Positions 8,143-51,930 of a stretch of DNA of 64,000 nt are shown here, one piece after another. The DNA is from Octopus vulgaris (lineage: Eukaryota): NCBI GenBank assembly GCA_951406725.2, contig OX597819.1, positions 112,902,001 to 112,966,000 of the forward strand, in the 5' to 3' direction. Position 1 is the first letter of the stretch. Every line of letters starts with the position of its first letter. The position numbers and the translations under genes are program-made. A model generated the notes under the pieces. It made no database searches, had not been told where the DNA came from, and was given only the letters and a program-made list of their open reading frames with translations.

Positions 8143-9457
8143 AATCGGATGTCCACCAAAGCTGCTGAGGATCATCAAGTCTTTCCATGATGACATGCAA
8201 GGCACCATACAGCACAACGGTTCAACATCAGCCGCCTTCCAAATAAAAAACGGGGTAAAGCAAGGTTGTGTCCTCGCTCCTACATTGTTTGGCATCTTTT
8301 TCTCGCTCTTACTTTCACATGCCTTTCAGACATCAGATGATGGAGTGTTTCTGCACAGTAGAAGTGACGGGAAACTGTTCAATCTCTCGCGCCTGCGTGC
8401 CAAGACCAAAATCAGAAACGTCCTGATCAAGGAGATGTTATTTGCTGATGATGCCGCTCTGGTAACACACACAGAAGAAGCCCTCTAAAGGCTCATTAAC
8501 TGTTTTGAGCAAGCATGTAACGACTTTGGCTTAGCTATCAGCCTTAAGAAGACCAACATCATGGGCCAGGCTACATCGGACATCCCAAACATACATATTG
8601 GAGACCACAGATTACAAGAGGTGGAGAAGTTTACCTATCTGGGCTCTACCGTCACCTACAACCTATCCCTTGACACTGAGCTCAATATACGCATTGGCAA
8701 GGCAGCTGCTGCGATGGCCCAACTCTCCAAACGGGCTTGGGACAACAATAAGCTGACCAAGACCACGAAAATGAAGATCTACCAGGCATGTGTACTCAGC
8801 ACTCTACTGTATGGAAGTGAGACTTGGACGCTATACACACGCCAAGAGCGTCGCCTAAACATCTTTCACCTGTGCTGCCTCCGAAAAATCCTCCGTATCA
8901 AATGGCAGAATCATATCCCCAACAAAGATGTCCTCAGGCAAGCAGGAATACCAAGCATGTTTGCACTCCTCACACAAAGACGTATGAGATGGCTTGGGCA
9001 TGTTAGCCGTATGAAAGATGGCAGAATCCCCAAGGACATACTCTACGGAGAGCTTGCTAGGGGTACTAGGTCTGTGGGTAGACCGATCTTACGTTACAAG
9101 GATGTTTGCAAAAGGGACATGAAGGCCTGCAACATCAATATTAGCGGTTGGGAGGCAGTTGCCGGCAACCGTGGAGAATGGCGACGTGCCGTAAAAGAGG
9201 GAATACAAAGGAGTGACAGAGAGAGAGAGGAGAAATGGAAAGAGAAAGAAGAGACGTCAACAAGAAACTATGGCATTTCAACCAGCCAGGAACAGCCTTC
9301 GCTACATTTGCGGTACCTGCCAGAGGGAGTGTTTGTCCAGGATAGGACTACACAGCCACAGCAGGAAATGTATCAGGACATGAAATATAAAAGCCGGACT
9401 AGACTACTTTATGTGCAACTCCATTGTCTCCCGAGACAAAAAGGATGCCAACAACAA
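8143..9457 (+). mobile_element. 5'-truncated RTE-clade LINE (RT C-terminal half + C-terminal Cys/His finger), inactivated
   Basis: GVKQGCVLAPTLF, LFADD, FTYLGS, RWLGHV motifs; in-frame TAA at 8486; frameshift near 9245 before YICGTCQRECLSRIGLHSHSRKC; (CAA)n tail. Confidence 0.93.
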
Positions 9458-9570
9458 TATATGTATGTACGTGTGCATGTATGTATGTATGTATGCACGT
9501 TTGTATGATGTATGTACGTATATATGTAGATACGTATGTATGTATGTATGTATGTATGTATGTATGTATG

Positions 9571-17113: not shown

Positions 17114-18524
17114 CAACAGCAGCAATAACACTACACGTCGATCCACCTGCTAGAAAAAGCAACCAAATGCCTTCAAATCACCCCTACTGTCTTAAAAAAA
17201 TGAATAACAACTGATGGTCATGACTGGAATGCCTTTCACCAGAGGCGCATCCTGTCACATTTGACCTGGATTTGAACAATTAGTACAAATCATTAACACT
17301 TTCTCATTGAAATCAAGAAATCAATCGCAAGAGAATAAAAGCTAAATCGACCCAGATTGGATTCGAAATTAGAACAGACACACACACACACATACACACA
17401 CACACATACACGCACACACACACACACACACACGCACGCACGCACACGTACGTATGCATGTATATATATTACGGAGGTATGGACGTGAACGTCACGACTT
17501 CATTAACCCAAGGTGAGAAAGCACTGTGTGCCCCTCATCTCTGGCCTCTTAGAGTTAATAAATAATCTTTAAACTGATTTCAGCTTGTGTCTGTATGTAT
17601 GTTTCTATCGATGCGTGTACCTACGTGTTGGTGTCGATGTGTTTTTGTTTCTTTGTTCTAATTTCAGGAAAGATGTGTGTACATATGCATGTGTATGTGT
17701 GCGTGTGTGAGTATCTATATGAGTATGTATGTGTGTGCGAGTATTTCTGTGTATTTGGTGTTTTTGTATGCCGGTGTGCTTGCGCCTGGGTATATTTTGT
17801 GGAGAAGCCAAGTGTGCGTATATTTGATATATGAGTATGTAACGGGTGTAACTATGTCGGCTATGTTTGTGTCTGCATGTGTATGTGACAGTGGTGTGAG
17901 AAAGTACGCGAGTTGGTGCGTTTATATGTCTGTATGTAGAGGATAAATGTATATGGGCATGTGTTTGTGTGTGCGCACGTTGTGCGTGTGTGTGTAAGTG
18001 TAATGTGTAAAATATTTCAATATTAGTTTTATGAATGTTTTTGCTTGTATATGTATATGTGTATGTGTGAGTCAAGTAGAAAATATTGGAAAAGGAATTA
18101 GTATGTTATTGATGCCGTAAAGTGCGGATGTCCGCAGTTTGAAGATGTGCCTTTGTTCGCAGAGTTATCTAGAAAAAGAGATATGGCTCTGTAACGAGTT
18201 TGCAGAATCGTTTGATCATCAGCGTTTGATCCAACTCCCTGAGCTCATTTTCTGCCGAGGCCAGCTTTACCGTTTATCCTTTTGGAATCCAGAGCAACGA
18301 ACTGACATAACTGCAAGCGGATTGCTGGTGAAAGTGTCAAAGTGTTGGACGAGGTAACTTGCCGTATGTTGTATTCTGGTGGCAATGTCTTCGACGACAC
18401 TGGCGCCAAGATATACTTGGACTGTATTTCCTTTGAGATAATAGTGACATAGAAAGGAAACATTTGCATGAACAAGCAACCTCTGGTGTTCAATGAATAA
18501 TCTGTCTTAGCATAATCTGTCCCA

Positions 18525-20140
18525 TTTGGACTCAAAAAGTGCGGAATAATCTACCTAAAAAGAGGCAAGATATAGCTTCTAACAGGTACAGAATTACCGA
18601 ACGGAGACTTGGTAAAACAATTTGAAACAGAAGGCTACAAATACCTATGTTTATAGAGTCCAACGAGATAATGGAGAAGGAAATGAAAGAGCAACTGAAG
18701 ATGGAGTATTTCCGAAGACTAAGGTTCGTATTGCGCTCAAAATTTACTGGATAGAATAAAATCCAAGCAGTTACTAGATGGCGATAGCATCACTTCGGGA
18801 TGGCGCAGGAATTATAAAATAGCAAAAAAGAGAAGTGAAGAAAATGGATACCAAGATCAGAAAAATGTTGACAGTACACGGAGCTTTCAACCCTAAGAGT
18901 GACACCGATAGGCTGTACTTGTCCAGAAGAAAGTGAGGGGGAGGTTTGATCAGTTGCCAGAACTGTATCAAAGCAGAAAAAAACAGTTGAGGGTGGTATA
19001 TTGTTGTGGCGGACACCCCCAGGTGAAAAGTGGGCTGGCCCACAACTAATAAATAGTGGACTCAGTAAGTAGTGTCAGCCAGCGAGGTACGCCGTTCGGG
19101 CCAGTCACGCAGACAATGAAATTACGATGTCATAATGCTGGACATATCATATATGAAAAATGCCGTAGAGCCATTGTTGAAGCATACGAAGAAGGCCGGC
19201 GTCGTCAAAACTGAAAATTGTGTAATGAAAGAAAAATTTAAAGGAGTAATAAACAGAAAAAAAAGAAAAAGCATATAAAGAAAAAAAATGTATGGTCAGT
19301 TTGCAAGAGATGTGAATACCAAGACAGATACAGAGGACCGGTGGCTATGGATGGGAAGTGACCTGAAGATAGAGGCAGAAGCACTCATATGCGCAGCTCA
19401 AGAACAAGCGTTAAGGACCAACTATGTGAAGTACAAAATACACAACACTACCGACAGCGACAAATGCAGAATGTGTGGTGAGAGGGGTGAAACGGTATGA
19501 CACATCGTTAGCGAATGCCCGAAACTGGCACAACGAGAATATAAAAGACGCCATGACAATGTAGCAAGAATAATCCATTAGGAGCTGTGTGGAAATCACG
19601 GCCTACAAAGAGCAAAGATGTGGTATAAGCAAACCCCAGAAGGAGTCACCGAGAATGAGAATTGCAAAATCCTGTGGGATGCAATGATCCAATGCGATCA
19701 CCTGACCAGACATCGGAAACCGGACATTGTTGTGGTGAATAATAAAAGAAAGAACATGCATGATAATCGGCATAGCATGCCCCGGTGACAACAGGATCAA
19801 TGTGAAAGAAGAAGAAAAAAATAAACAATTATGACGATTTGAAATGAGAAATACGAAGGTTGTGGTCAACGAGGAGAGTAGACGTGATATCAATAGTAAT
19901 TGGTACACTTGGAAGTATCAGCACTCAACTACCAACGTGGCTAAAAAAGGCTGGTGCAAGTGTGAAGGTAGAACACCAGCAAAAATCAGTATTGCTTCGA
20001 ACTGCAAGAATTCTTCGCAGGGTTTTTGAAGCATGACTAGTAAACAGATGTCACCTTAGTCTGCTGGCTGTGGGAAGCTGACACTTTCCATCATTCACAG
20101 CAAAATAATCTGTGAGTTTTCATCGCATAATAATAATAAT
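18525..20140 (+). mobile_element. Degenerate R4/Dong-like non-LTR retrotransposon 3' half (RT end, CCHC knuckle, REL endonuclease)
   Basis: YKYL, ALICAAQEQALRTNY, CRMC...ETV.HIVSEC, YKRRHDNVA, KILWD...RKPDIVV motifs; many stops; ends in (TAA)n. Confidence 0.88.
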
Positions 20141-25403: not shown

Positions 25404-25629
25404 GCATGGGAACGAGTCACACAGTTGACATTCACTCGCAAGAGACGCGGCCCGGTTGACATAGAAGTAAATTTTCTCACTGGTAGACATGGCGACGGTA
25501 GTCCATTTGATGGAAATGGTGGAATTCTGGCGCATGCGTTCTTCCCCTACGACAACTCACCGGGCCTATCAGGTGATGCCCACTTTGATGCGGACGAAGA
25601 CTGGGGTTCGAGAAATTTCATCAACAGAA
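25404..25629 (+). CDS. MMP coding exon 5: structural Zn/Ca ligands
   Basis: AWERVTQLTF...DIEVNF...HGDGSPFDGNGGILAHAFFP...GDAHFDADEDW; donor A|GTGAGT. Confidence 0.97.
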
Positions 25630-27024: not shown

Positions 27025-27148
27025 GGAGTCGTGTACCAACACTTTCATGTGGCATACTTGAACAATTGTGAAAATCTTTTCCCATGAAACCATTGGTAGT
27101 CTTATTAACATAAATATTATATATATATATATATATACATATATATAC

Positions 27149-27212
<64 letters not shown>

Positions 27213-27352
27213 AATATAAGAGAGTGGTCACTATATGGCTCACTCTAGCACCAGTTAATCCAAAAGGTTTCAACCACAAAAATACATGCTTCCCATGAAA
27301 GTTAGTACGATTGTTAGCTCACACGGACAGGGCAAATAAAAATAACAAAATA

Positions 27353-27449
27353 CAGATTATTTTGGGACAATTGTTTCGCTATTAATGAATTAAATGTAAT
27401 TTTACTTACAATTAAAATCCACTTGTAGCTCTTCAGCCAAAACTATCTG
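27353..27449 (-). ncRNA. Type I hammerhead ribozyme, copy 1 of 6
   Basis: cagauaguuuugg-CUGAAGA-gcua...uagc-GAAA-c-aauu-GUC/ccaaaauaaucug; 13-position stem I with one mismatch; predicted cut between 27366 and 27365. Confidence 0.85.
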
Positions 27450-27886
27450 GATGAAATCCACTCAATCACACGCCAGATTTTACCATAACGATAAATACGC
27501 GTGTGGTTCAATTGATTACATCCGACGTTATAATTCAAATGCCCCAACTAACAGCGCGCCAAACTCTCACGGAAAACAAATACAGCATTTAGAAATAAAT
27601 GCAGCATAATTATAATTAATTAATAAGGGTGAGAGAATTAGATACTAATTTAATAGTATATCTATTCTACACCAAGTGGCCTAGTGCTCCGAGAAACCTG
27701 GATTATTATAATATTTTACAATATATTATAATATTTTTACAAAATAAATATAAGAGAGTGGTCACTATATGGCTCACTCTAGCACCAGTTAATCCAAAAG
27801 GTTTCAACCACAAAAATACATGCTTCCCATGAAAGTTAGTACGATTGTTAGCTCACACGGACAGGGCAAATAAAAATAACAAAATA

Positions 27887-27983
27887 CAGATTATTTTGGG
27901 ACAATTGTTTCGCTATTAATGAATTAAATGTAATTTTACTTACAATTAAAATCCACTTGTAGCTCTTCAGCCAAAACTATCTG
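27887..27983 (-). ncRNA. Type I hammerhead ribozyme, copy 2 of 6
   Basis: Same motif at +534. Confidence 0.85.
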
Positions 27984-28420
27984 GATGAAATCCACTCAAT
28001 CACACGCCAGATTTTACCATAACGATAAATACGCGTGTGGTTCAATTGATTACATCCGACGTTATAATTCAAATGCCCCAACTAACAGCGCGCCAAACTC
28101 TCACGGAAAACAAATACAGCATTTAGAAATAAATGCAGCATAATTATAATTAATTAATAAGGGTGAGAGAATTAGATACTAATTTAATAGTATATCTATT
28201 CTACACCAAGTGGCCTAGTGCTCCGAGAAACCTGGATTATTATAATATTTTACAATATATTATAATATTTTTACAAAATAAATATAAGAGAGTGGTCACT
28301 ATATGGCTCACTCTAGCACCAGTTAATCCAAAAGGTTTCAACCACAAAAATACATGCTTCCCATGAAAGTTAGTACGATTGTTAGCTCACACGGACAGGG
28401 CAAATAAAAATAACAAAATA

Positions 28421-28517
28421 CAGATTATTTTGGGACAATTGTTTCGCTATTAATGAATTAAATGTAATTTTACTTACAATTAAAATCCACTTGTAGCTCT
28501 TCAGCCAAAACTATCTG
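28421..28517 (-). ncRNA. Type I hammerhead ribozyme, copy 3 of 6
   Basis: Same motif at +1068. Confidence 0.85.
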
Positions 28518-28954
28518 GATGAAATCCACTCAATCACACGCCAGATTTTACCATAACGATAAATACGCGTGTGGTTCAATTGATTACATCCGACGTTATA
28601 ATTCAAATGCCCCAACTAACAGCGCGCCAAACTCTCACGGAAAACAAATACAGCATTTAGAAATAAATGCAGCATAATTATAATTAATTAATAAGGGTGA
28701 GAGAATTAGATACTAATTTAATAGTATATCTATTCTACACCAAGTGGCCTAGTGCTCCGAGAAACCTGGATTATTATAATATTTTACAATATATTATAAT
28801 ATTTTTACAAAATAAATATAAGAGAGTGGTCACTATATGGCTCACTCTAGCACCAGTTAATCCAAAAGGTTTCAACCACAAAAATACATGCTTCCCATGA
28901 AAGTTAGTACGATTGTTAGCTCACACGGACAGGGCAAATAAAAATAACAAAATA

Positions 28955-29051
28955 CAGATTATTTTGGGACAATTGTTTCGCTATTAATGAATTAAATGTA
29001 ATTTTACTTACAATTAAAATCCACTTGTAGCTCTTCAGCCAAAACTATCTG
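28955..29051 (-). ncRNA. Type I hammerhead ribozyme, copy 4 of 6
   Basis: Same motif at +1602. Confidence 0.85.
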
Positions 29052-29488
29052 GATGAAATCCACTCAATCACACGCCAGATTTTACCATAACGATAAATAC
29101 GCGTGTGGTTCAATTGATTACATCCGACGTTATAATTCAAATGCCCCAACTAACAGCGCGCCAAACTCTCACGGAAAACAAATACAGCATTTAGAAATAA
29201 ATGCAGCATAATTATAATTAATTAATAAGGGTGAGAGAATTAGATACTAATTTAATAGTATATCTATTCTACACCAAGTGGCCTAGTGCTCCGAGAAACC
29301 TGGATTATTATAATATTTTACAATATATTATAATATTTTTACAAAATAAATATAAGAGAGTGGTCACTATATGGCTCACTCTAGCACCAGTTAATCCAAA
29401 AGGTTTCAACCACAAAAATACATGCTTCCCATGAAAGTTAGTACGATTGTTAGCTCACACGGACAGGGCAAATAAAAATAACAAAATA

Positions 29489-29585
29489 CAGATTATTTTG
29501 GGACAATTGTTTCGCTATTAATGAATTAAATGTAATTTTACTTACAATTAAAATCCACTTGTAGCTCTTCAGCCAAAACTATCTG
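29489..29585 (-). ncRNA. Type I hammerhead ribozyme, copy 5 of 6
   Basis: Same motif at +2136. Confidence 0.85.
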
Positions 29586-30022
29586 GATGAAATCCACTCA
29601 ATCACACGCCAGATTTTACCATAACGATAAATACGCGTGTGGTTCAATTGATTACATCCGACGTTATAATTCAAATGCCCCAACTAACAGCGCGCCAAAC
29701 TCTCACGGAAAACAAATACAGCATTTAGAAATAAATGCAGCATAATTATAATTAATTAATAAGGGTGAGAGAATTAGATACTAATTTAATAGTATATCTA
29801 TTCTACACCAAGTGGCCTAGTGCTCCGAGAAACCTGGATTATTATAATATTTTACAATATATTATAATATTTTTACAAAATAAATATAAGAGAGTGGTCA
29901 CTATATGGCTCACTCTAGCACCAGTTAATCCAAAAGGTTTCAACCACAAAAATACATGCTTCCCATGAAAGTTAGTACGATTGTTAGCTCACACGGACAG
30001 GGCAAATAAAAATAACAAAATA

Positions 30023-30119
30023 CAGATTATTTTGGGACAATTGTTTCGCTATTAATGAATTAAATGTAATTTTACTTACAATTAAAATCCACTTGTAGCT
30101 CTTCAGCCAAAACTATCTG
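30023..30119 (-). ncRNA. Type I hammerhead ribozyme, copy 6 of 6
   Basis: Same motif at +2670. Confidence 0.85.
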
Positions 30120-30184
30120 GATGAAATCCACTCAATCACACGCCAGATTTTACCATAACGATAAATACGCGTGTGGTTCAATTG

Positions 30185-30232
<48 letters not shown>

Positions 30233-30514: not shown

Positions 30515-30664
30515 ATGCTGAACTCTACTGCGTTGCTGTACATGAATTTGGACACAGCCTTGGGCTGATGCATTCCCGATGGCCCCTGTCTATCATGTGG
30601 CCATGGATGAAAGGAGACTGTACCCTGTCCAAATTTGACATTGCTGTCATCCAAACGATTTATG
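30515..30664 (+). CDS. MMP coding exon 6: catalytic zinc motif and Met-turn
   Basis: AELYCVAVHEFGHSLGLMHSRWPLSIMWP...DIAVIQTIYG; donor G|GTGAGT. Confidence 0.97.
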
Positions 30665-30702
30665 GTGAGTTACATGCATTTATACTTTCGGGGTGGATAA
30701 AA

Positions 30703-31185: not shown

Positions 31186-31247
31186 ATTTACGTAACCAGA
31201 TGATACTTTCCATACCTCTGCTAACTTCTACCTATCTCAATTAACAG

Positions 31248-34200
31248 GTGTCGCTAAAGGAGGAATATTTCCAAGACGTCCTTTTTTCTTCTTCCGGACC
31301 TTGCCATCATCGTCCTCATCATCATTGCCATCATCCCCGTCGTTGCCAAGCAAACCAAAATCGACGGCGACATCGCAGCCATCAACTGCATTGCCATCAA
31401 CAATACTATCGCATGACACAACACATGTGACAAGAGAAGTATTAACACACGTGACTACAGGAGAATCAACACACATGACTACAGGAGAATCAACACACGT
31501 GACTAGAGGAACATCAACACATGTGACCACAGGAGCATCGACACAGGTGACCACGAGCGCAGCAACCCCCGGAATCGAACGCAAAACACGCGCGACCAGA
31601 CCTTCAACCCATGTGGCTAGACCTAAAACAAGCAAGGACAAACAATCAACTCCACACGTGACAGAACACACTGTACGCTTGACTAGACGAAAAACGCAGG
31701 GAACCAGACCAACAACACACGTCACCAGATCAACCTCACACGTGTCCAGCCGTAAAACAGACAAGTCTGGACCATTAACAACACGTGCGACCAGACGAAC
31801 AGAACACGAAACCAGAAATGCAAACCACGTGACTAGACCAACAACACACGTGACCAGATCAACCTCACACGTGTCCAGCCGTAAAACAGACAAGTCTGGA
31901 CCATTAACAACACGTGCGACCAGACGAACAGAACGCGTAACCAGAAATGCAAAACACGTGACTAGACAAACAACACACGTGACCAGATCAACCTCACACG
32001 TGTCCAGCCGTAAAACAGACAAGTCTGGACCATTAACAACACGTGCGACCAGACGAACAGAACACGAAACCAGAAATGCAAACCACGTGACTAGACCAAC
32101 AACACACGTGACCAGATCAACCTCACACGTGTCCAGCCGTAAAACAGACAAGTCTGGACCATTAACAACACGTGCGACCAGACGAACAGAACGCGTAACC
32201 AGAAATGCAAAACACGTGACTAGACAAACAACAGATGTGACGAGGCGAGCGAAAGATGTAACCAGACCAACACACGTGATCAGTTCTAAAACTGACAGAT
32301 TTAGACCATTAACGACACACGTGACCAGACGAACAGCATACGTAACCAAACCAACAGCACATGTGACCAAACCAACAGCACACGTGACCAAGCCAACAGC
32401 ACACGTGACCAAGTCAACAGCACACGTGACCAAGTCAACAGCACACGTGACCAAGCCAACACCAGATTTGACTAAACCAACACACGTGACCAGACGTATA
32501 ACAAATGCAACTACTAGGGTCTCGTTAAACATGACTACGACACCAGAGTCCGCAGGAATGGGTAACAGTATTATTATTACTGCCAAGAGAACGGCAGCAA
32601 CAGTAACAACACCATCTAAAACGACAAAAACAACAGCAGCAACAACAGCAGCAGCAACAGCAGCAGCAACAGCAGCAGTGTATTCGGCACCGTTCGAAAC
32701 CGAGACCCCCACTAATCAGAATGTGACAGCAGGATCTGAACGCCTGGCACAAACGTCTTTGTCGAACGATCGAACAAAGGAACATGTCTCATCCACACTG
32801 CATGAAGGGAACCGTACGCCAACTGAATATTTGTTGGCAAGGGAGACACCACCACCACCACCACCATCATCATCTTCATCATCATCATCATCATCATCGT
32901 CGTCGTCGTCGTCGTCGTCGTCTTTACCGAATGTTAGGTCAACGCGCAATGTAAAGGCAAAGACAACACAATTTATTTTGGGCCAGTCAACCCAGATCAC
33001 AGAGAAAGTTCGTGATGCTGTGGAGGCAGAGAGTCCTTTGCTAACGCCGCCACCACCGCAACCATCACTGTCTCTTTCATTGTTATCATCATCATCATCA
33101 TCATCATCACCATCGCCACCGTTCCCACAAGCACAGACATCACCACAACCACCACCACAAACACCACCACCACAAACACCACCACCACCAACACCATCGC
33201 CACCACTACCACAGACACTGCCAGCATCACCAGTATCAACATCACTATTACCACAAACACCACTTCCATCAACAGCAACACCACTACAAAAACCATTACC
33301 ACCATCACAAACACCACCACTACCACAAACACCACCACCAACACCATCGCCACCACAACAAACATCACCGCCACTACCACCACCACAAACACCACCACCA
33401 GCAGAAACACGCCCATCACTAAAACTAACGCCACCACCACAAACACCACCGCCGGCTCCATCATCACAACCACCATCACCATCTCCGCTACCAACGCCAC
33501 CACCATCACCACCGCCATCAACACCGCCGCAATCAGCACCACCTCAACCACCATCAATACCAGCACCATCACTAAGACCAACTCCTCTATCACAAACACC
33601 ATCAAAACAACCACCGCCGCCGCCACCACAAACGCCACGACGACCACTAGGAATACCATCACCCTCACTAACGCAAACACCACCACCGTCATTCCTACCG
33701 TTGTCACCACCACCATCTCCACCACCATCACCACCACCATCATCACAACAAACCCCATCATCACCATCATTACAAACACCAACAACAATATTAAACACAT
33801 CAAAATCTAATCATCCATTTAGTGGGGTATATGCCACCCCGGCACAGTCAACATTTGTAGATCAGCCTCCCATTTATGGCCTTTTGCCCTCAACGCACGC
33901 ATCTCCTCGCCCAAACCTTTCTACATTCCAGACTTACACGAACCTACAAACGGGTCCCTCTAAAGTACCGGAAGCCACAAGTCAGATTCCCTCCCTGAAC
34001 ACCCAAGATGTCAATTTTCCTAGAAAGTCTACCGTTCAAGACGGAACTTCAGAAAATCGCCATATATCTCTTGGGATCACATCTCAGACACTGGTAGATG
34101 TAACAGCAGCCATAAACACTGTAAACCGAACAGAGCAGGTTCGATCCGCTGAAGCCCAGACTAAGCGTCAAACGACATCGATGGCCACGATGGTAAGAAC

Positions 34201-35945
34201 AACAAGAGCACTAATGAATACAACAACTACAACAACAAATGGAACGACAATACCAGCATCAAGAAGAGCCACTCAGATACCAGAATCAACAATATCAATA
34301 GCAACAACTGCAACAACAAAAAGACCTGAACTTTCAAAAGAAACAAATAACATTTTCCCTGTCAACATCACCACTATGACTACTGCTGCCGCTTTTGCTG
34401 TTAACTCCACCACCACCACTACCACCACAACCATCTCTGACATCATCAACATTGCCGTCACAAATATTGTCCTTAACGCTACTAGTGATATGAAAAGCAA
34501 GAGCCCTGTTAATACCAACAGAGTCTTTAACAATAGGAACACTAGTAATAGTACCATGTCCGTAAATACCACTAACACCATTTATAATTTCATTAGCACC
34601 ACCGATAGCAACAACAGTAACAGCAGCGTGACTGTTGATACTACCAAGGCCAATAACAACCTCATTAGCACCCTCGGTAGCAACATCAGGAACACTGTCA
34701 TTGCCGATAGCACAACCAGTAAAACCATCATTAACAACACCGATAGCAACACAAACAACCTCATTGACACCACCGATAGCAACACCAGTAACGTTGCCAC
34801 TGACATTAATTATAACCTCGTAAACAGCACCGATATCAACATTAGCAACACTGACAACTACATTCATTCCACCGATAGCAACACCGTCAACTACATTCAT
34901 TCCACCGATAGCAACACCAACAACTACATTGATTCCACCGACAGCAACACTAACACCATCCGTAACAACAGTATCGCTAACACCAAAAACAGCCATTATA
35001 GCATAACTGATAGCAATATAAGCCACATTACCACTAACATCAGGAACACCTCGTCCATCAGCTCCACTACTAACAACACTACCAATAATATTAAAAACTC
35101 TGCAAACACCACCAGTACTACAAAAATTAGATCTAAGGTCAAAGCCTCTCCTGGGGTGTTACATTCGCCCGGAACAACTTCCGTCACAAATTCCAGTCAT
35201 AGACCAAATGAACGAAATATGACAGTATTGGCTATAGATAATCGACACACAGTTCCAGGTGTACAGCTGAAGAGCTCGTACGAAACACCTACCACTCAAA
35301 AACGTATTGCAGACATGCAACAATATAACAACGATAACAACAACGACAACACCGTCTCGGGTGGGAAACGAACGTTGTACAAACTGCTTCGTCAAAAGAA
35401 CAAATATAAGCCACAGTTGTGGCCCCGCGTTCAAATAGGTAAGGAAACAGGGCATTTGCAAAACTTCAATACTCGGTTAGAGAGCGGAAACCGACACAAA
35501 TTCGAACGCGACTTCTTTAAACGGGTCAAACGAAGTTATCAGGAAACGGATACGTTAGGTCCCGATACAGGGAGTGAATTTCAAACCGGACCGATGGGCA
35601 TTCGAATTCCGGTGACAATTGTTTCAGGTGTAACTGGATGTTTTAAATCCTCGGGAACGAAAACATCGACTGTATTACCACTGTTTGTGACTAGAAACCG
35701 AGATCAAACTCAACAGGATATTTGGCAAACTACGAGTGATAAACCTGCTAAAAGACAAACAATGCGTCCAGGGGAGTTTCAAACTCAAGAGCCAACTGAT
35801 GTAGTAGCACACAACAGTGTATTTTCTACACACCCAACCACAATGAGTCGATCTTCGCAACAAAATAGGAATTCGAGCGATGTATGCTTCATACCCATTG
35901 ATGCTACATTTGTTGATCCGAGTCGCACTCTATATATATTTAGTG
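31248..35945 (+). CDS. MMP coding exon 7 (4698 nt): giant T/S/P/N-rich linker plus start of hemopexin domain
   Basis: Acceptor ttaacAG; a single open frame (ORF track 1550 aa) in phase with exon 6; ends in CFIPIDATFVDPSRTLYIFSG (hemopexin blade 1) at donor G|GTGAGT. Confidence 0.88.
31703..32240 (+). repeat. Coding minisatellite: 129-bp (43-aa) unit x about 4, ABAB pattern
   Basis: aacctcacacgtg recurs at 31732, 31861, 31990 and 32119; units alternate EHETRNAN / ERVTRNAK. Confidence 0.92.
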
Positions 35946-36383
35946 GTGAGTAACGCAATCTTTTATTAAATAATTAAGTCATAATGTAATCTGTTTATTT
36001 AGTAAGCTGACTCGAATTTTCCTACCACATAAACCGGATCTCTGAACTAATATTTTAATAGCGCTTTTAAAGACTATAGGGTAATATTTAAGGCAAATTT
36101 GGCTATTATTCTCAGCAGACCGAACAACGCAGCTGAGATTCTCTTGTATGATTTAAGCCCTACAGGATGCGTTGTTCGATTCCTGTTCAAGTAATGCTGG
36201 CTCTTCAACAACAGCAAATTGTCTTTTAGAAATATGTAATGTTTAACATTATTCATATACTAAATGTTAATTTTGTACCACGCGCCCATATGTATACATA
36301 TATACTGTATATATATATGTGTGTGTGTGTGTATATGCATGTGTTTGTGCGTAGGAGTGTATGTGTGTGTATGTATACTCTTT

Positions 36384-43229: not shown

Positions 43230-43720
43230 TGTCGTTTCGTTTCGTTCGACGGATCCGGCGCCTTTCGTGGAAGCTTTCGCCCGCTTCTTAGGACCGACTG
43301 GCCCGTGCTCGACCGCCGGTCTTCGAAGGTCTCGTTCGAATATTTGCTACTATCACCGGGATCTGCACCCGCGGTCGGCTTCACCCGGGCTCGCGCCCGC
43401 GGCTTCCACGCACGCCGCGGCGCCCTCCTACTCGAACGGGCATCGGAAAGTCGCCTCGCCGGCGATTGTTCAACCTGTCGCCCGACCGGTCCGTCATCGG
43501 TCACTCGCTCCAGCGCCATCCATTTTCGGGGCCGATCGATTCGGCAGGTAAGTTGTTACACACTCCTGAGCGGATTCCGACTTCCTTGGCTACCGTCCTG
43601 CTGTCTATATCGACCGACACCGTTTCGGGGATCTAATGGGCGAAGCGTAGGGCACCTTAGCCGGACGTTCGGTTCATCCCACATCACCAGTTCTGCTTAC
43701 CAAAAGTGGCCCACTTGGCA
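43230..43720 (-). pseudogene. 28S (LSU) rRNA fragment, non-functional dispersed copy
   Basis: Conserved LSU blocks on + as reverse complement: cttaggaccgactg, gaatatttgctact, cgctccagcgccatccattttc, gttgttacacactcct, cagttctgcttaccaaaagtggcccact. About 490 bp only, with an apparent internal deletion at 43320/43321. Confidence 0.92.
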
Positions 43721-43942
43721 CCACCTTTATCTTACTAAATAATAATAAAAAACCAAGAATAAACTATATAATAATTAAAATAAGCGCGTAGATCAAACTA
43801 ATGACAGCTTTTGTAAAGAATCGATTAAAAGAGTCGAAGAAGAAGGTAAATTTGTATACCACGTGTAGAGATGGGTTCTTGTGCTTTAGGCAGCGGTCTT
43901 TTTCAGAGAAATAACCATAAATGTTAATATCTAATTCGTCAT

Positions 43943-49065: not shown

Positions 49066-49071
<6 letters not shown>

Positions 49072-50150
49072 GTTATCGCCATACTAATATGGCATTCTTA
49101 TAAAAATAAGAAAAAAGCTGTCCGCTTATTAGCTCCATGAGGCCATCGCCTTAAGTTAGCTATTTGATACACAAACTGTATCCATATAACCTTCGAACAA
49201 GGGAGGTCAGTCGCTCCACACTACTTGACCGGCAGCTACAGACGCGTTTCGGGGTATTGCCCCTTTTCAATGCAGCGTAGCCAGCCAGTAGGTGTCGCTT
49301 CCGACAATCTCTGTTCGATGGTTTTATTTACCTAGTTTCGGTGGAATACATCCACTTGTTTTCAATAATAGAAATATTAAAATAACTAAGTCTCTCTAAA
49401 AGAGAACAGCGGCAGCGTTCCCGGAAAATAATAGTTATCGCCATACTAATATGGCATTCTTATAAAAATAAGAAAAAAGCTGTCCGCTTATTAGCTCCAT
49501 GAGGCCATCGCCTTAAGTTAGCTATTTGATACACAAACTGTATCCATATAACCTTCGAACAAGGGAGGTCAGTCGCTCCACACTACTTGACCCGCAGCTA
49601 CAGACGCGTTTCGGGGTATTGCCCCTTTTCAATGCAGCGTAGCCAGCCAGTAGGTGTCGCTTCCGACAATCTCTGTTCGATGGTTTTATTTACCTAGTTT
49701 CGGTGGAATACATCCACTTGTTTTCAATAATAGAAATATTAAAATAACTAAGTCTCTCTAAAAGAGAACAGCGGCAGCGTTCCCGGAAAATAATAGTTAT
49801 CGCCATACTAATATGGCATTCTTATAAAAATAAGAAAAAAGCTGTCCGCTTATTAGCTCCATGAGGCCATCGCCTTAAGTTAGCTATTTGATACACAAAC
49901 TGTATCCATATAACCTTCGAACAAGGGAGGTCAGTCGCTCCACACTACTTGACCCGCAGCTACAGACGCGTTTCGGGGTATTGCCCCTTTTCAATGCAGC
50001 GTAGCCAGCCAGTAGGTGTCGCTTCCGACAATCTCTGTTCGATGGTTTTATTTACCTAGTTTCGGTGCATTGAAAAGGGGCAATACCCCGAAACGCGTCT
50101 GTAGCTGCCGGTCAAGTAGTGTGGAGCGACTGACCTCCCTTGTTCGAAGG
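49066..50150 (-). repeat. Tandem array, 362-bp unit x about 2.8, plus an inverted 85-bp terminal copy; hammerhead-bearing PLE/retrozyme-like
   Basis: atactaatatgg at 49081, 49443 and 49805; 50066-50150 is the reverse complement of part of the unit; (TA)n on the left flank. Confidence 0.93.
49235..49276 (-). ncRNA. Type I hammerhead ribozyme, U3-A8 core variant (further copies at 49597-49638 and 49959-50000; + strand copy at 50066-50105)
   Basis: gcugca-UUGAAAA-gggg caaua cccc-GAAA-cgc-GUC/uguagc; stem I is extended by uggcuggc/gccgguca. Confidence 0.8.
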
Positions 50151-50173
50151 GAATATTGAGTCTGATATGAAAT

Positions 50174-50217
50174 CCACCTGATGAATGTCATTTGAAGACA
50201 GGAAACAATTGTAGTGG
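50174..50217 (+). ncRNA. Type I hammerhead-like motif (third family)
   Basis: ccac-CUGAUGA-a uguc auuugaa gaca g-GAAA-c aauu-GUA/gugg; the first stem II pair is mismatched. Confidence 0.65.
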
Positions 50218-51930
50218 CGATTTATTTACTTTATATTAAAATTTTTTTTTGTATTGATTAAGTCTTTCCTTGTTTGATTTGCAAAATAGTGATTTTGTCT
50301 CTAATTAATATTATATAATATTTTACTATAAAATTGGATTCAATCCTAAATCTGATTTTTCCCTGTAAATTTGGATTTATTCCCTAATATTTATTATTAT
50401 ATTATATATATAGGTATAAACATTATATATAAAGAAACAAGAACGTGAAATACACAAAGGGACGAACACAGAAAACAGACGGGTCATTCGAAGCCTTTAA
50501 TCTTCAGTCAGAAACCGGATCATCATAGCAAATTTCGGCTGATATATATATGAGCGTAAATTAACCAGTGGTGAGTGATGAAGTGTGATGGGGTGACAAA
50601 TATGGCGAAGTTATATGGTGGAATGATAAATGCAGTGAAGTAGCAGATAGTGTGTAGTAGCAAAATATTGTACAAAATGCCTTGTGGTATTTGTTACAGC
50701 TCTTTACTTTCTAAATTCGAATCCCACCAAGGCCACTTTAGCTTTTCATCCTTCCGGGATCGATAAAATTAACTACTAGTCAAATATTGGGATCGGAATT
50801 AATTCGATAAACCATTTCCCTAAAAATGGTAGCCTTGTGCCTAAATTTTAAAAATCCGGAGCCGTAGATTAGTAAAATTGTTAGGACGTTGGAGAAAATA
50901 TCTTGCAGTGTTTGTTTTGGCTCTTTACGCTCTAGTTTAAAATCTGGCCATAGTCAACTTTACTTTCCATTCTTCCGGAGTAGACGAAGTAAAGTAACAA
51001 TCAAGTACTGGGGTCGACTTAACTGACTAGTCCCTTGCATCAAAATTATTGGCCTTGTATCTAAATCAGAAACCAAAGGCGGCGAGGAGTAGAATCGCTA
51101 AGGCATTGGGAAAATGCCCTGCAGTATTTCTTGCGGTACTTAATAGTCTGGGTTCAAATCCATCTGGAGTCAACTTTGCTTTTTATCCCTTTGCTGTTGA
51201 TAAAATAATTACTGAATCGATGGTGTCGACCCAATATTTAACTAAGGTCTTGTTAAATTTCTTCCAGCAAACATAAGTAGTTCTAATTGTCACCACATTA
51301 TTTTCATGTAGTTTTGATGTAGTTTTCTATGCTGATGATGAAAAATGCATTCATTTTTCCTCCTTGAAATTAATAATAAAGAAGTGACAAGCATTTAAAA
51401 ATTGTGTAATTTTAGCCAATCAGAAGCCTTCAATCGGGTGGGGATTTGAAATACCTCAAGTGGTTGAAAGAAAAGAAATTTAACAAGATCATTTAACTGG
51501 TACCAATGAATAAAGTACCAGCCTGTTAAGTAGTGGGGTCAATTGTATCGACGAACCTCTTCCCTTTAAAATTACTGACCTTGTCCCTAAACCAAAAACC
51601 ATTATTAGAGAGATCCGCTTCAAGTATAGAGAGAGCTAAAGCGGTTTATCTTACTACGCCTTTGATCATGTAGGAGTATAGGAAACAAAGATGACGACAG
51701 CTACATAAACAGCTACTACTGCAAGTACTACAGTTATAAGAGTAACAACAGCTGCAGCAACAACAACTATATCACCATCAACCCCACCAACTTCAACAAC
51801 AACAACAGCTAAGAGAATCACTACCACCGCCAACAGCCACAACAACTATATAACAGCTACGACAGTAATAAGAGCAGTCATGAGAATAAGAGCAACAGCG
51901 ATAACAACAACACCAGATGAAAAAGAAATA

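Follow-up and report, generated by a model that had tools for sequence, protein, structure and literature searches.

A young hammerhead retrozyme of Octopus vulgaris with fixed paired insertion ends, likely copied into (TA)n by Penelope-like enzymes

In a 64,000-nucleotide stretch of the Octopus vulgaris genome (GenBank assembly GCA_951406725.2, contig OX597819.1, positions 112,902,001 to 112,966,000 of the forward strand; hereafter the window), positions 27207-30188 hold a tandem array that is a young retrozyme of the kind lacking long terminal repeats (non-LTR). Its 534-nt unit is non-coding, carries a predicted hammerhead ribozyme and has at least 755 insertions, and we consider it likely, at a probability of roughly 0.68, that these were copied into (TA)n by Penelope-like enzymes rolling round a predicted circular monomer RNA. 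What is new about the family is its anatomy: fixed ends that occur in pairs, a tail of ~130 nt, and insertions made of two inverted arms.

When 27207-30188 was matched against itself at a lag of 534, all 2,448 of 2,448 positions were identical. The 2,982-bp repeat consists of five full 534-bp units plus 312 nt (5.58 units) with a unit GC content of 32%, and no open reading frame of 100 amino acids was found in any frame within one unit. The partial unit also contains a hammerhead, bringing the total to six, all on the minus strand. A preliminary description of this DNA had reported an array of identical-looking 534-nt units with six minus-strand hammerheads; the self-match bears this out and the six ribozyme motifs are there, but the number of units is 5.58 rather than six. 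The same account had the array embedded in (TA)n, and such tracts are indeed seen at both sides, at 27110-27206 on the left and 30189-30224 on the right. The element itself reads on the minus strand and belongs to the one-armed class of insertions. Its fixed 3′ end, which we call short, is joined to (TA)n at 27205-27215 and would mark the start of reverse transcription of the window copy, while the 5′-truncated end, at unit position 312, joins (TA)n through a shared TA (30185-30190). The tail, mapped to 27611-27740, lies between the short end and a second fixed site, the long end; it is internal in the window array and terminal in other copies of the family. Tandem hammerhead units, absence of coding capacity, GC below 50% and dispersed copies are features of a non-LTR retrozyme that the element shares.

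The absence of any difference across 2,982 bp would make the array younger than ~280,000 years, if the calibration given in the available text of PMC13282606 holds here and no true differences were smoothed away when the assembly was polished. Could the unit number at this locus be an artefact of assembly, the repeat having been collapsed or expanded and polished to identity? Units that are 100% identical, with microsatellites at both sides, lend this some colour. Other loci, however, share the anatomy with 0.1-12.8 units and with differences at the level of single units, and the window locus has a haplotype of its own and the two kinds of junction that a genuine insertion with one arm should have. 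We regard an artefact as very improbable.

All six copies of the ribozyme motif have a stem I of CAGAUAGUUUUGG / CCAAAAUAAUCUG on the minus strand, the core CUGAAGA, GAAA and the cleavage triplet GUC. The stem II region spans 52 nt, is closed by GCUA/UAGC, and is long and bulged; stem III has 2 bp and an AAUU loop. The copies lie, on the minus strand, at 27353-27449 (predicted cut 27366/27365), 27887-27983 (27900/27899), 28421-28517 (28434/28433), 28955-29051 (28968/28967), 29489-29585 (29502/29501) and, in the partial unit, 30023-30119 (30036/30035). The first was evaluated by motif, fold and conservation of pairing across families, and the other five by motif. With core, GAAA, a UH cleavage site and helices I and II all in place, the motif is a predicted type I hammerhead.

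No hammerhead model of Rfam matched, either at the gathering score or at E values up to 10. Nonetheless, the motif folded better than shuffled sequence (z -3.3), with 1 of 200 shuffles equally good. The predicted fold of the circle contains helices I and II, whereas helix III, of 2 bp, is absent from the monomer; the stem III palindrome ACAAUUGU pairs between two copies as a duplex at -6.4 kcal/mol, and a dimer mode of hammerhead pairing through a palindromic stem III is described in the accessible part of PMC4209133. The predicted 534-nt circle folds strongly on both strands (z -5.1 and -4.7), so folding does not pick the strand. Pairing was further assessed by scanning the fetched loci, which were enriched for such elements by choice, with the core letters alone. 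Across the resulting 47 motif clusters, stem I was paired at 186 of 282 positions compared with 118 for shuffled partners (maximum 149), and stem II at 141 of 188 compared with 102 (maximum 123); stem III was palindromic in 18 of the 24 well-paired motifs. In an alignment of eight related motifs, 94.7% of cells were paired, none of 500 shuffles reached the score of the alignment, and 7 of 10 pairs in helices I and II showed changes on both sides. Helix III, at 2 bp, was invariant among the eight, and position 7 of the hammerhead has three alleles within the family.

A 25-mer from the hammerhead had 2,087 exact matches in the 2.8 Gb of genome searched, and exact junctions with (TA)n numbered 755 for the long end and 437 for the short end; the controls gave 0 in all three cases. 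These dispersed copies, at least 755 of them, are without LTR structure, as judged without a search for a primer-binding site or a polypurine tract. The (TA)n at both sides hides any target-site duplication, which in non-LTR retrozymes exceeds 4 bp where there is one. Two samples of loci were studied: an unbiased one of 33 loci, from the first 100 of the 2,087 matches in order along one contig, and a second one of 39 loci picked for likeness to the window copy, which is included. Near-identical sequence was also found in 20 sequencing runs from 10 studies and six organisms. Contigs of four runs presumed to be RNA cover the unit; contig depth cannot rank expression, and we read neither its level nor its strand from them. 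One 565-nt contig from a second organism's run, aligning at 27519-28082, spans just over one unit and shows 7 differences; its length is that expected for a single self-closing variant, tandem DNA and circle alike.

Every outer end in the 33 unbiased loci was either long or short and was joined to (TA)n. The short end lies at unit position ~1 (in the window copy) and the long end at ~405-409, which puts the long site ~130 nt 3′ of the short site on the RNA. Inverted pairs, joined 5′ to 5′, made up 16 of the 33 loci, and all 16 combined one long with one short end, including the composite locus L031, which contains foreign sequence. The other 17 of the 33 had a single arm. One-arm loci use either end (14 long, 17 short). 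Among the likeness-picked loci, 22 of 25 with two arms were scored as long+short by script; on inspection L007 and L064 proved to be long+short as well, and L255 was not a pair. The rule also held for 22 of 22 inverted pairs among the 100 long and 50 short junctions listed (chance probability 2e-8); six of these pairs overlap the earlier locus sample. At the inverted locus L063, where the arms come from two subfamilies and one is degraded, the ends are still long+short, a hint that the enzyme or the DNA ends, and not a single RNA, are the source of the asymmetry. Read-through of an inverted locus would yield long double-stranded RNA.

Because about half of the loci are inverted repeats in TA-rich targets, a foldback transposon or one resembling a miniature inverted-repeat transposable element might come to mind, with the arms as its terminal inverted repeats. 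That idea is already contradicted by two ends that differ by ~130 nt in every pair. It would also have to accommodate the 17 of 33 unbiased loci with a single arm, an inner junction that differs from locus to locus, and substitutions that are strand-biased relative to the unit, and we find it hardly tenable.

The arms themselves carry information about the template. Their inner ends are scattered, with 5 of 113 within 10 nt of the predicted cut (4.4 expected) and none at the cut itself. A linear cleaved monomer is excluded as the template, since 100 of 109 arms cross a cut site and the longest reaches 12.75 units. Within a locus the arms are closely alike: 32 of 11,252 sites differ between them, half of these differences fall in L063, and 26 of 39 loci have none, against a between-locus difference of 2.9%. 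Among 62 well-covered loci we counted 43 haplotypes. We found 93 differences confined to single units, and only 7 variants were found in several units of a locus yet were missing from others. Variants are thus fixed across all units at once, with few partial cases, and this indicates a bottleneck of one unit. A monomeric circle, as predicted here, is a simple explanation for the simultaneous fixation of a new variant in all units.

Arrays might instead grow in place, single units being inserted by Penelope-like machinery and then multiplied by unequal crossing over, as suggested in the available text of 10.64898/2026.07.22.740005. Some exchange after insertion is indeed suggested by variants that only part of the units carry at L047 (4 of 13) and L038 (2 of 5). 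Local growth fits poorly with arrays whose outer end keeps the fixed priming site while the phase of the inner end is random, with inverted loci in which both arms can be multimeric and identical, with the 100 of 109 arms that pass a cut site, and with very young arrays that have no internal differences and already contain 5-6 units. As the main source of the arrays it is improbable.

Strand-biased substitutions provide hints of a single-stranded stage. Inherited changes on the plus strand comprised 15 T>C and 3 A>G (the former being A to G on the RNA), as compared with 3 and 7 among singletons (P 0.011), and singleton C>T outnumbered G>A by 25 to 6 (P 0.004). Both tests were post hoc and polarised by the majority allele; an unpolarised test against within-locus singletons was not significant (P 0.59). 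In contigs of three runs presumed to be RNA, T>C changes came in clusters; of the 15 sites scored, 13 were never C in the genomic sample, and one contig had the opposite change. This is a weak hint of adenosine-to-inosine editing of a minus-strand RNA.

According to the available text of PMC8557442, Penelope-like insertions are marked by inverted, 5′-truncated partners, by a tail at one end and by (TA)n as the target, and we looked for candidate drivers among the Penelope-like elements of this genome. Matches to the GIY-YIG endonuclease gave Neptune-type families, and protein or DNA searches gave Hydra-type families. An intact Neptune-type family encodes 781 amino acids and has a tail of ~39 nt; the scans made found no hammerhead in it. 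At least seven families have Hydra motifs. Their hammerheads are of type I, mostly with a long stem II and a palindromic stem III, their tails measure ~70, 119 and 156 nt, and they target (TA)n. Long and short ends were paired at 25 of 25 distinct loci of a 980-amino-acid Hydra-type family (29 rows with 4 duplicates, from a long-end query), at 16 of 17 loci of a 717-amino-acid family, the remaining one, L307, being a nested tangle, at 4 of 4 and 2 of 2 loci of two other Hydra-type families, and at 2 of 2 loci of the Neptune-type family. L188 is short+short, with the flank duplicated too.

The Hydra-type assignment rests on motifs, following criteria in the accessible part of PMC8557442 (an RWK-like motif, DKT, a CxCX5C linker, and CxxC and CxH in the endonuclease). 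RxRW, DKT, CxxC and CxH were present in 7 of 7 proteins, the CxCX5C linker in 5 of 7 and an exact RWK in 2 of 7. No Pfam domain was detected in the 717-amino-acid protein. Its family (L291:2573-4723 and elsewhere) appears very active, as all 150 scored endonuclease matches, of 18,774 candidates, were identical; according to the portions of PMC8557442 at hand, Hydra families are few in number outside cnidarians. Tail length and ribozyme type point to Hydra as the driver of the retrozyme. We judge that a Hydra-type element is probably responsible, that a family outside our sample is a rather unlikely source, and that the Neptune type is a still less likely one.

The preliminary description had proposed a young, non-coding retroelement with hammerheads that derives from a circular or multimeric template and is related to Penelope-like elements; the anatomy of the genome-wide copies supports this proposal. 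It had also looked to Penelope-like reading frames adjacent to the unit; none was found in protein or DNA searches, and the link is one of insertion anatomy, not of shared sequence. The closest relative of the unit is a family designated K, which is colinear with it (score 240, shuffle maximum 82). K lies downstream of an endonuclease in L255, which we treat as chance adjacency, other copies of K matching only the part shared with the unit. Families F, G, H and J are non-coding in the loci seen and share a tail motif with the unit, one that is common to the unit and its sister retrozymes. Besides the unit, then, the genome has at least five non-coding families with hammerheads, F, G, H, J and K (L173:7285-7873, L067:6921-7818, L226:1501-2160, L031:5090-5500 and L255:1340-1720); all share the tail motif and are joined to (TA)n, and H and K have thousands of first-look candidates. 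No coding partner common to the unit and these five relatives was found among the sampled families.

These observations are consistent with the following course of events. An array would be transcribed on its minus strand, and the hammerheads would cut the transcript, probably as dimers through the palindromic stem III, after which the monomer would be circularised, as other retrozymes suggest. A Penelope-like protein with reverse transcriptase and GIY-YIG domains, likely of Hydra type, would then cut both strands of the (TA)n in which the copies are found. Each DNA end presumably primes a complementary DNA (cDNA), with the short site used at one of them and the long site, ~130 nt 3′, at its counterpart; these are the two ends that the insertions display. 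Each cDNA would run for 0.1 to 12.8 turns, the range of arm lengths, without a fixed stop. The outcome would be either an inverted pair, in which the two are joined 5′ to 5′, or a single arm rejoined to (TA)n, as in the window. A more specific version, in which a dimeric Hydra-type enzyme holds one hammerhead-generated circle, cuts both (TA)n strands and has its halves start at the two fixed sites 130 nt apart, is put forward tentatively, as having somewhat less than an even chance.

Several findings weigh against a hammerhead-generated circle as the template or a Hydra-type element as the driver. Some concern the ribozyme. The core is not measurably better kept than the rest of the unit within the family, with 1 shared variant in 12 core sites where ~1.1 would be expected, in a test that is without power in so young a family. 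A U4-to-C change in the core occurs in 6 of 67 loci. The resulting CCGAAGA core is found at unit position 229 in L055, L057, L064 and L068, a retrozyme subfamily, and also in two intact Hydra-type families (L291, L205), so that the change is tolerated or cleavage is dispensable. In the available text of PMC11167929, hammerhead mutants were still inserted in vitro and cleavage was dispensable for insertion, and 8 of 9 frog retrozyme dimers did not cleave according to the accessible part of 10.64898/2026.07.22.740005. Others concern the units. Mixed units occur on both arms of L068, the partial variants of L047 and L038 were described above, the arms of L063 differ at 16 of 393 sites, and variants called private are so among 71 sampled loci only. 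Homogeneous parent arrays would equally yield homogeneous daughters by way of a linear transcript. Concerning the driver, none of the coding elements sampled, from ~7 Hydra-type families and from the Neptune-type families, showed DNA homology to the unit; the sample comprised the best-scoring candidates of each search. A profile of 11 Hydra hammerheads linked to open reading frames scored the unit at 5.5 bits, below the shuffle maximum of 6.8, and alignment of the unit tail with Hydra tails stayed within the shuffle range.

Much of this would suit a related alternative, in which the two-ended, Penelope-type insertion is the same but the template is an uncleaved linear multimer reading through the parent array, the hammerhead being a passenger or serving another step. 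Neither insertion end maps to the cut, L068 has its mixed units, the U4-to-C core spreads and is carried by intact Hydra-type families, and hammerhead mutants insert in vitro, as cited. Against it, 43 haplotypes in 62 loci with scarce partial sharing, and variants fixed in every unit of both arms, as at L057, call for a one-unit bottleneck. Arms that reach 12.75 units are difficult for it as well, linear-only copies being unable to outgrow their parents, and pairing of the hammerhead is conserved across families. We consider the linear multimer unlikely and favor the monomeric circle.

The array is inserted in a gene. Exons of a matrix metalloproteinase lie on the plus strand at both sides of the host intron: a catalytic-domain exon upstream (25404-25629; Peptidase_M10 positions 33-99, E 2e-21) and an exon with the HExxHxxGxxH zinc motif downstream (30515-30666; positions 107-159, E 4e-13). 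Both carry AG/GT splice sites and they join in phase, from which it follows that the array is intronic and antisense to the gene, exactly where the preliminary description had put it. The position of a retroelement inside a protease gene, as then described, is correct; the tie to the gene is incidental, and the 534-nt RNAs then expected from this locus are putative. With the ribozyme antisense to the pre-messenger RNA and at least 755 insertions in the genome, of which this is one, nothing special is implied for the protease gene. A regulatory role of the array was considered and dropped, as no evidence supported it.

The window has other features. Directly after the protease catalytic exon, 31196-35953 is an open frame of 1,585 codons, rich in Thr, Pro and Ser, with internal repeats of 21 bp and 129 bp and no convincing Pfam match; the protease gene probably has here a very large linker exon of mucin-like type. 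At 43366-43830, the minus strand holds 465 bp of a large-subunit ribosomal RNA fragment (288 bits). The regions 8144-9508 and ~18300-20030, judging from their translated or visible sequence, we take to be two broken reverse-transcriptase fragments of the long interspersed nuclear element type. At 49066-50151 there is a second element of like build, with 2.8 copies of a 362-bp unit after (TA)n and then a short inverted arm. A motif resembling a hammerhead lies on its minus strand, but the core is altered (CUGCAUUGA ... GAAAC-GC-GUC); relatives 80-100% alike occur in L089, L177 and L190. Close by, on the plus strand at 50170-50230, is a compact type I hammerhead with the ACAAUUG stem III of the 534-bp unit; it belongs to a dispersed family with copies in L039, L056, L113, L197 and L309.

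If the tentative version with a dimeric Hydra-type enzyme is true, it would name the driver of an animal retrozyme, prove a circle as template from DNA alone, and mean that the Penelope tail stems from an obligatory asymmetry between two ends. The family carries a mechanical signature: its ends are fixed and paired, its target is shared, and each insertion keeps to one variant over many turns. This favors arrays arriving ready-made from a circle over arrays growing in place. Several Hydra-type open reading frames of this genome are intact and very young, with intact families encoding 717, 899 and 980 amino acids, so that the driver is directly testable in vitro.

Animal non-LTR retrozymes, as described in the available texts of PMC7229834 and 10.64898/2026.07.22.740005, resemble the octopus element in having non-coding tandem units with a type I hammerhead whose short stem III is palindromic. 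They are likewise GC-poor, number in the thousands of copies, have a predicted circle that folds well and have been proposed to depend on Penelope-like elements. At 534 nt the unit is above the 150-450 bp of PMC7229834 and within the 51-972 bp of 10.64898/2026.07.22.740005, and its 52-nt stem II region sets it apart. The accessible portions of these two sources describe no retrozymes with fixed paired ends, with a tail, with two inverted arms or with (TA)n as the target, and in the literature searched, which covers few subscription journals, there was no report of cephalopod retrozymes or of paired long and short retrozyme ends. Penelope-like elements are called a strong candidate for moving retrozymes in the text available from PMC7229834. 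That of 10.64898/2026.07.22.740005 derives retrozymes from Penelope-like pseudo-LTRs, suggests local growth of arrays, and argues from co-occurrence and homology with the mechanism still to be worked out.

Hydra-clade Penelope-like elements (PMC8557442, in the part available) share the (TA)n target, a canonical hammerhead near the 3′ end, an inverted 5′-truncated partner and a tail at one end only. Unlike them, the unit encodes no protein, is repeated over many turns of one short sequence and has no detectable homology to the sampled Hydra pseudo-LTRs. The published Hydra-clade tail is 30-40 bp, as compared with ~130 nt in the unit; in the Hydra-type families of this genome the tails of ~70-156 nt and the long+short pairing are like those of the unit. 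Non-autonomous Chlamys elements such as MRC1 are, in the same text, also non-coding, multicopy and head-to-tail in insertions mobilised by Penelope-like elements, but their 3′ ends are similar to those of their autonomous partners, and most Chlamys elements are without canonical hammerheads. Poseidon of Anolis carolinensis, in the accessible part of PMC11167929, cuts and extends both strands of AT-rich DNA, has a protein predicted to act as a dimer, and has two internal starts of reverse transcription that bound a tail, as in the unit. In vitro no difference in its start sites was seen between the strands, whereas in the octopus retrozyme the template is non-coding and the two arms of an insertion always use different sites, ~130 nt apart.

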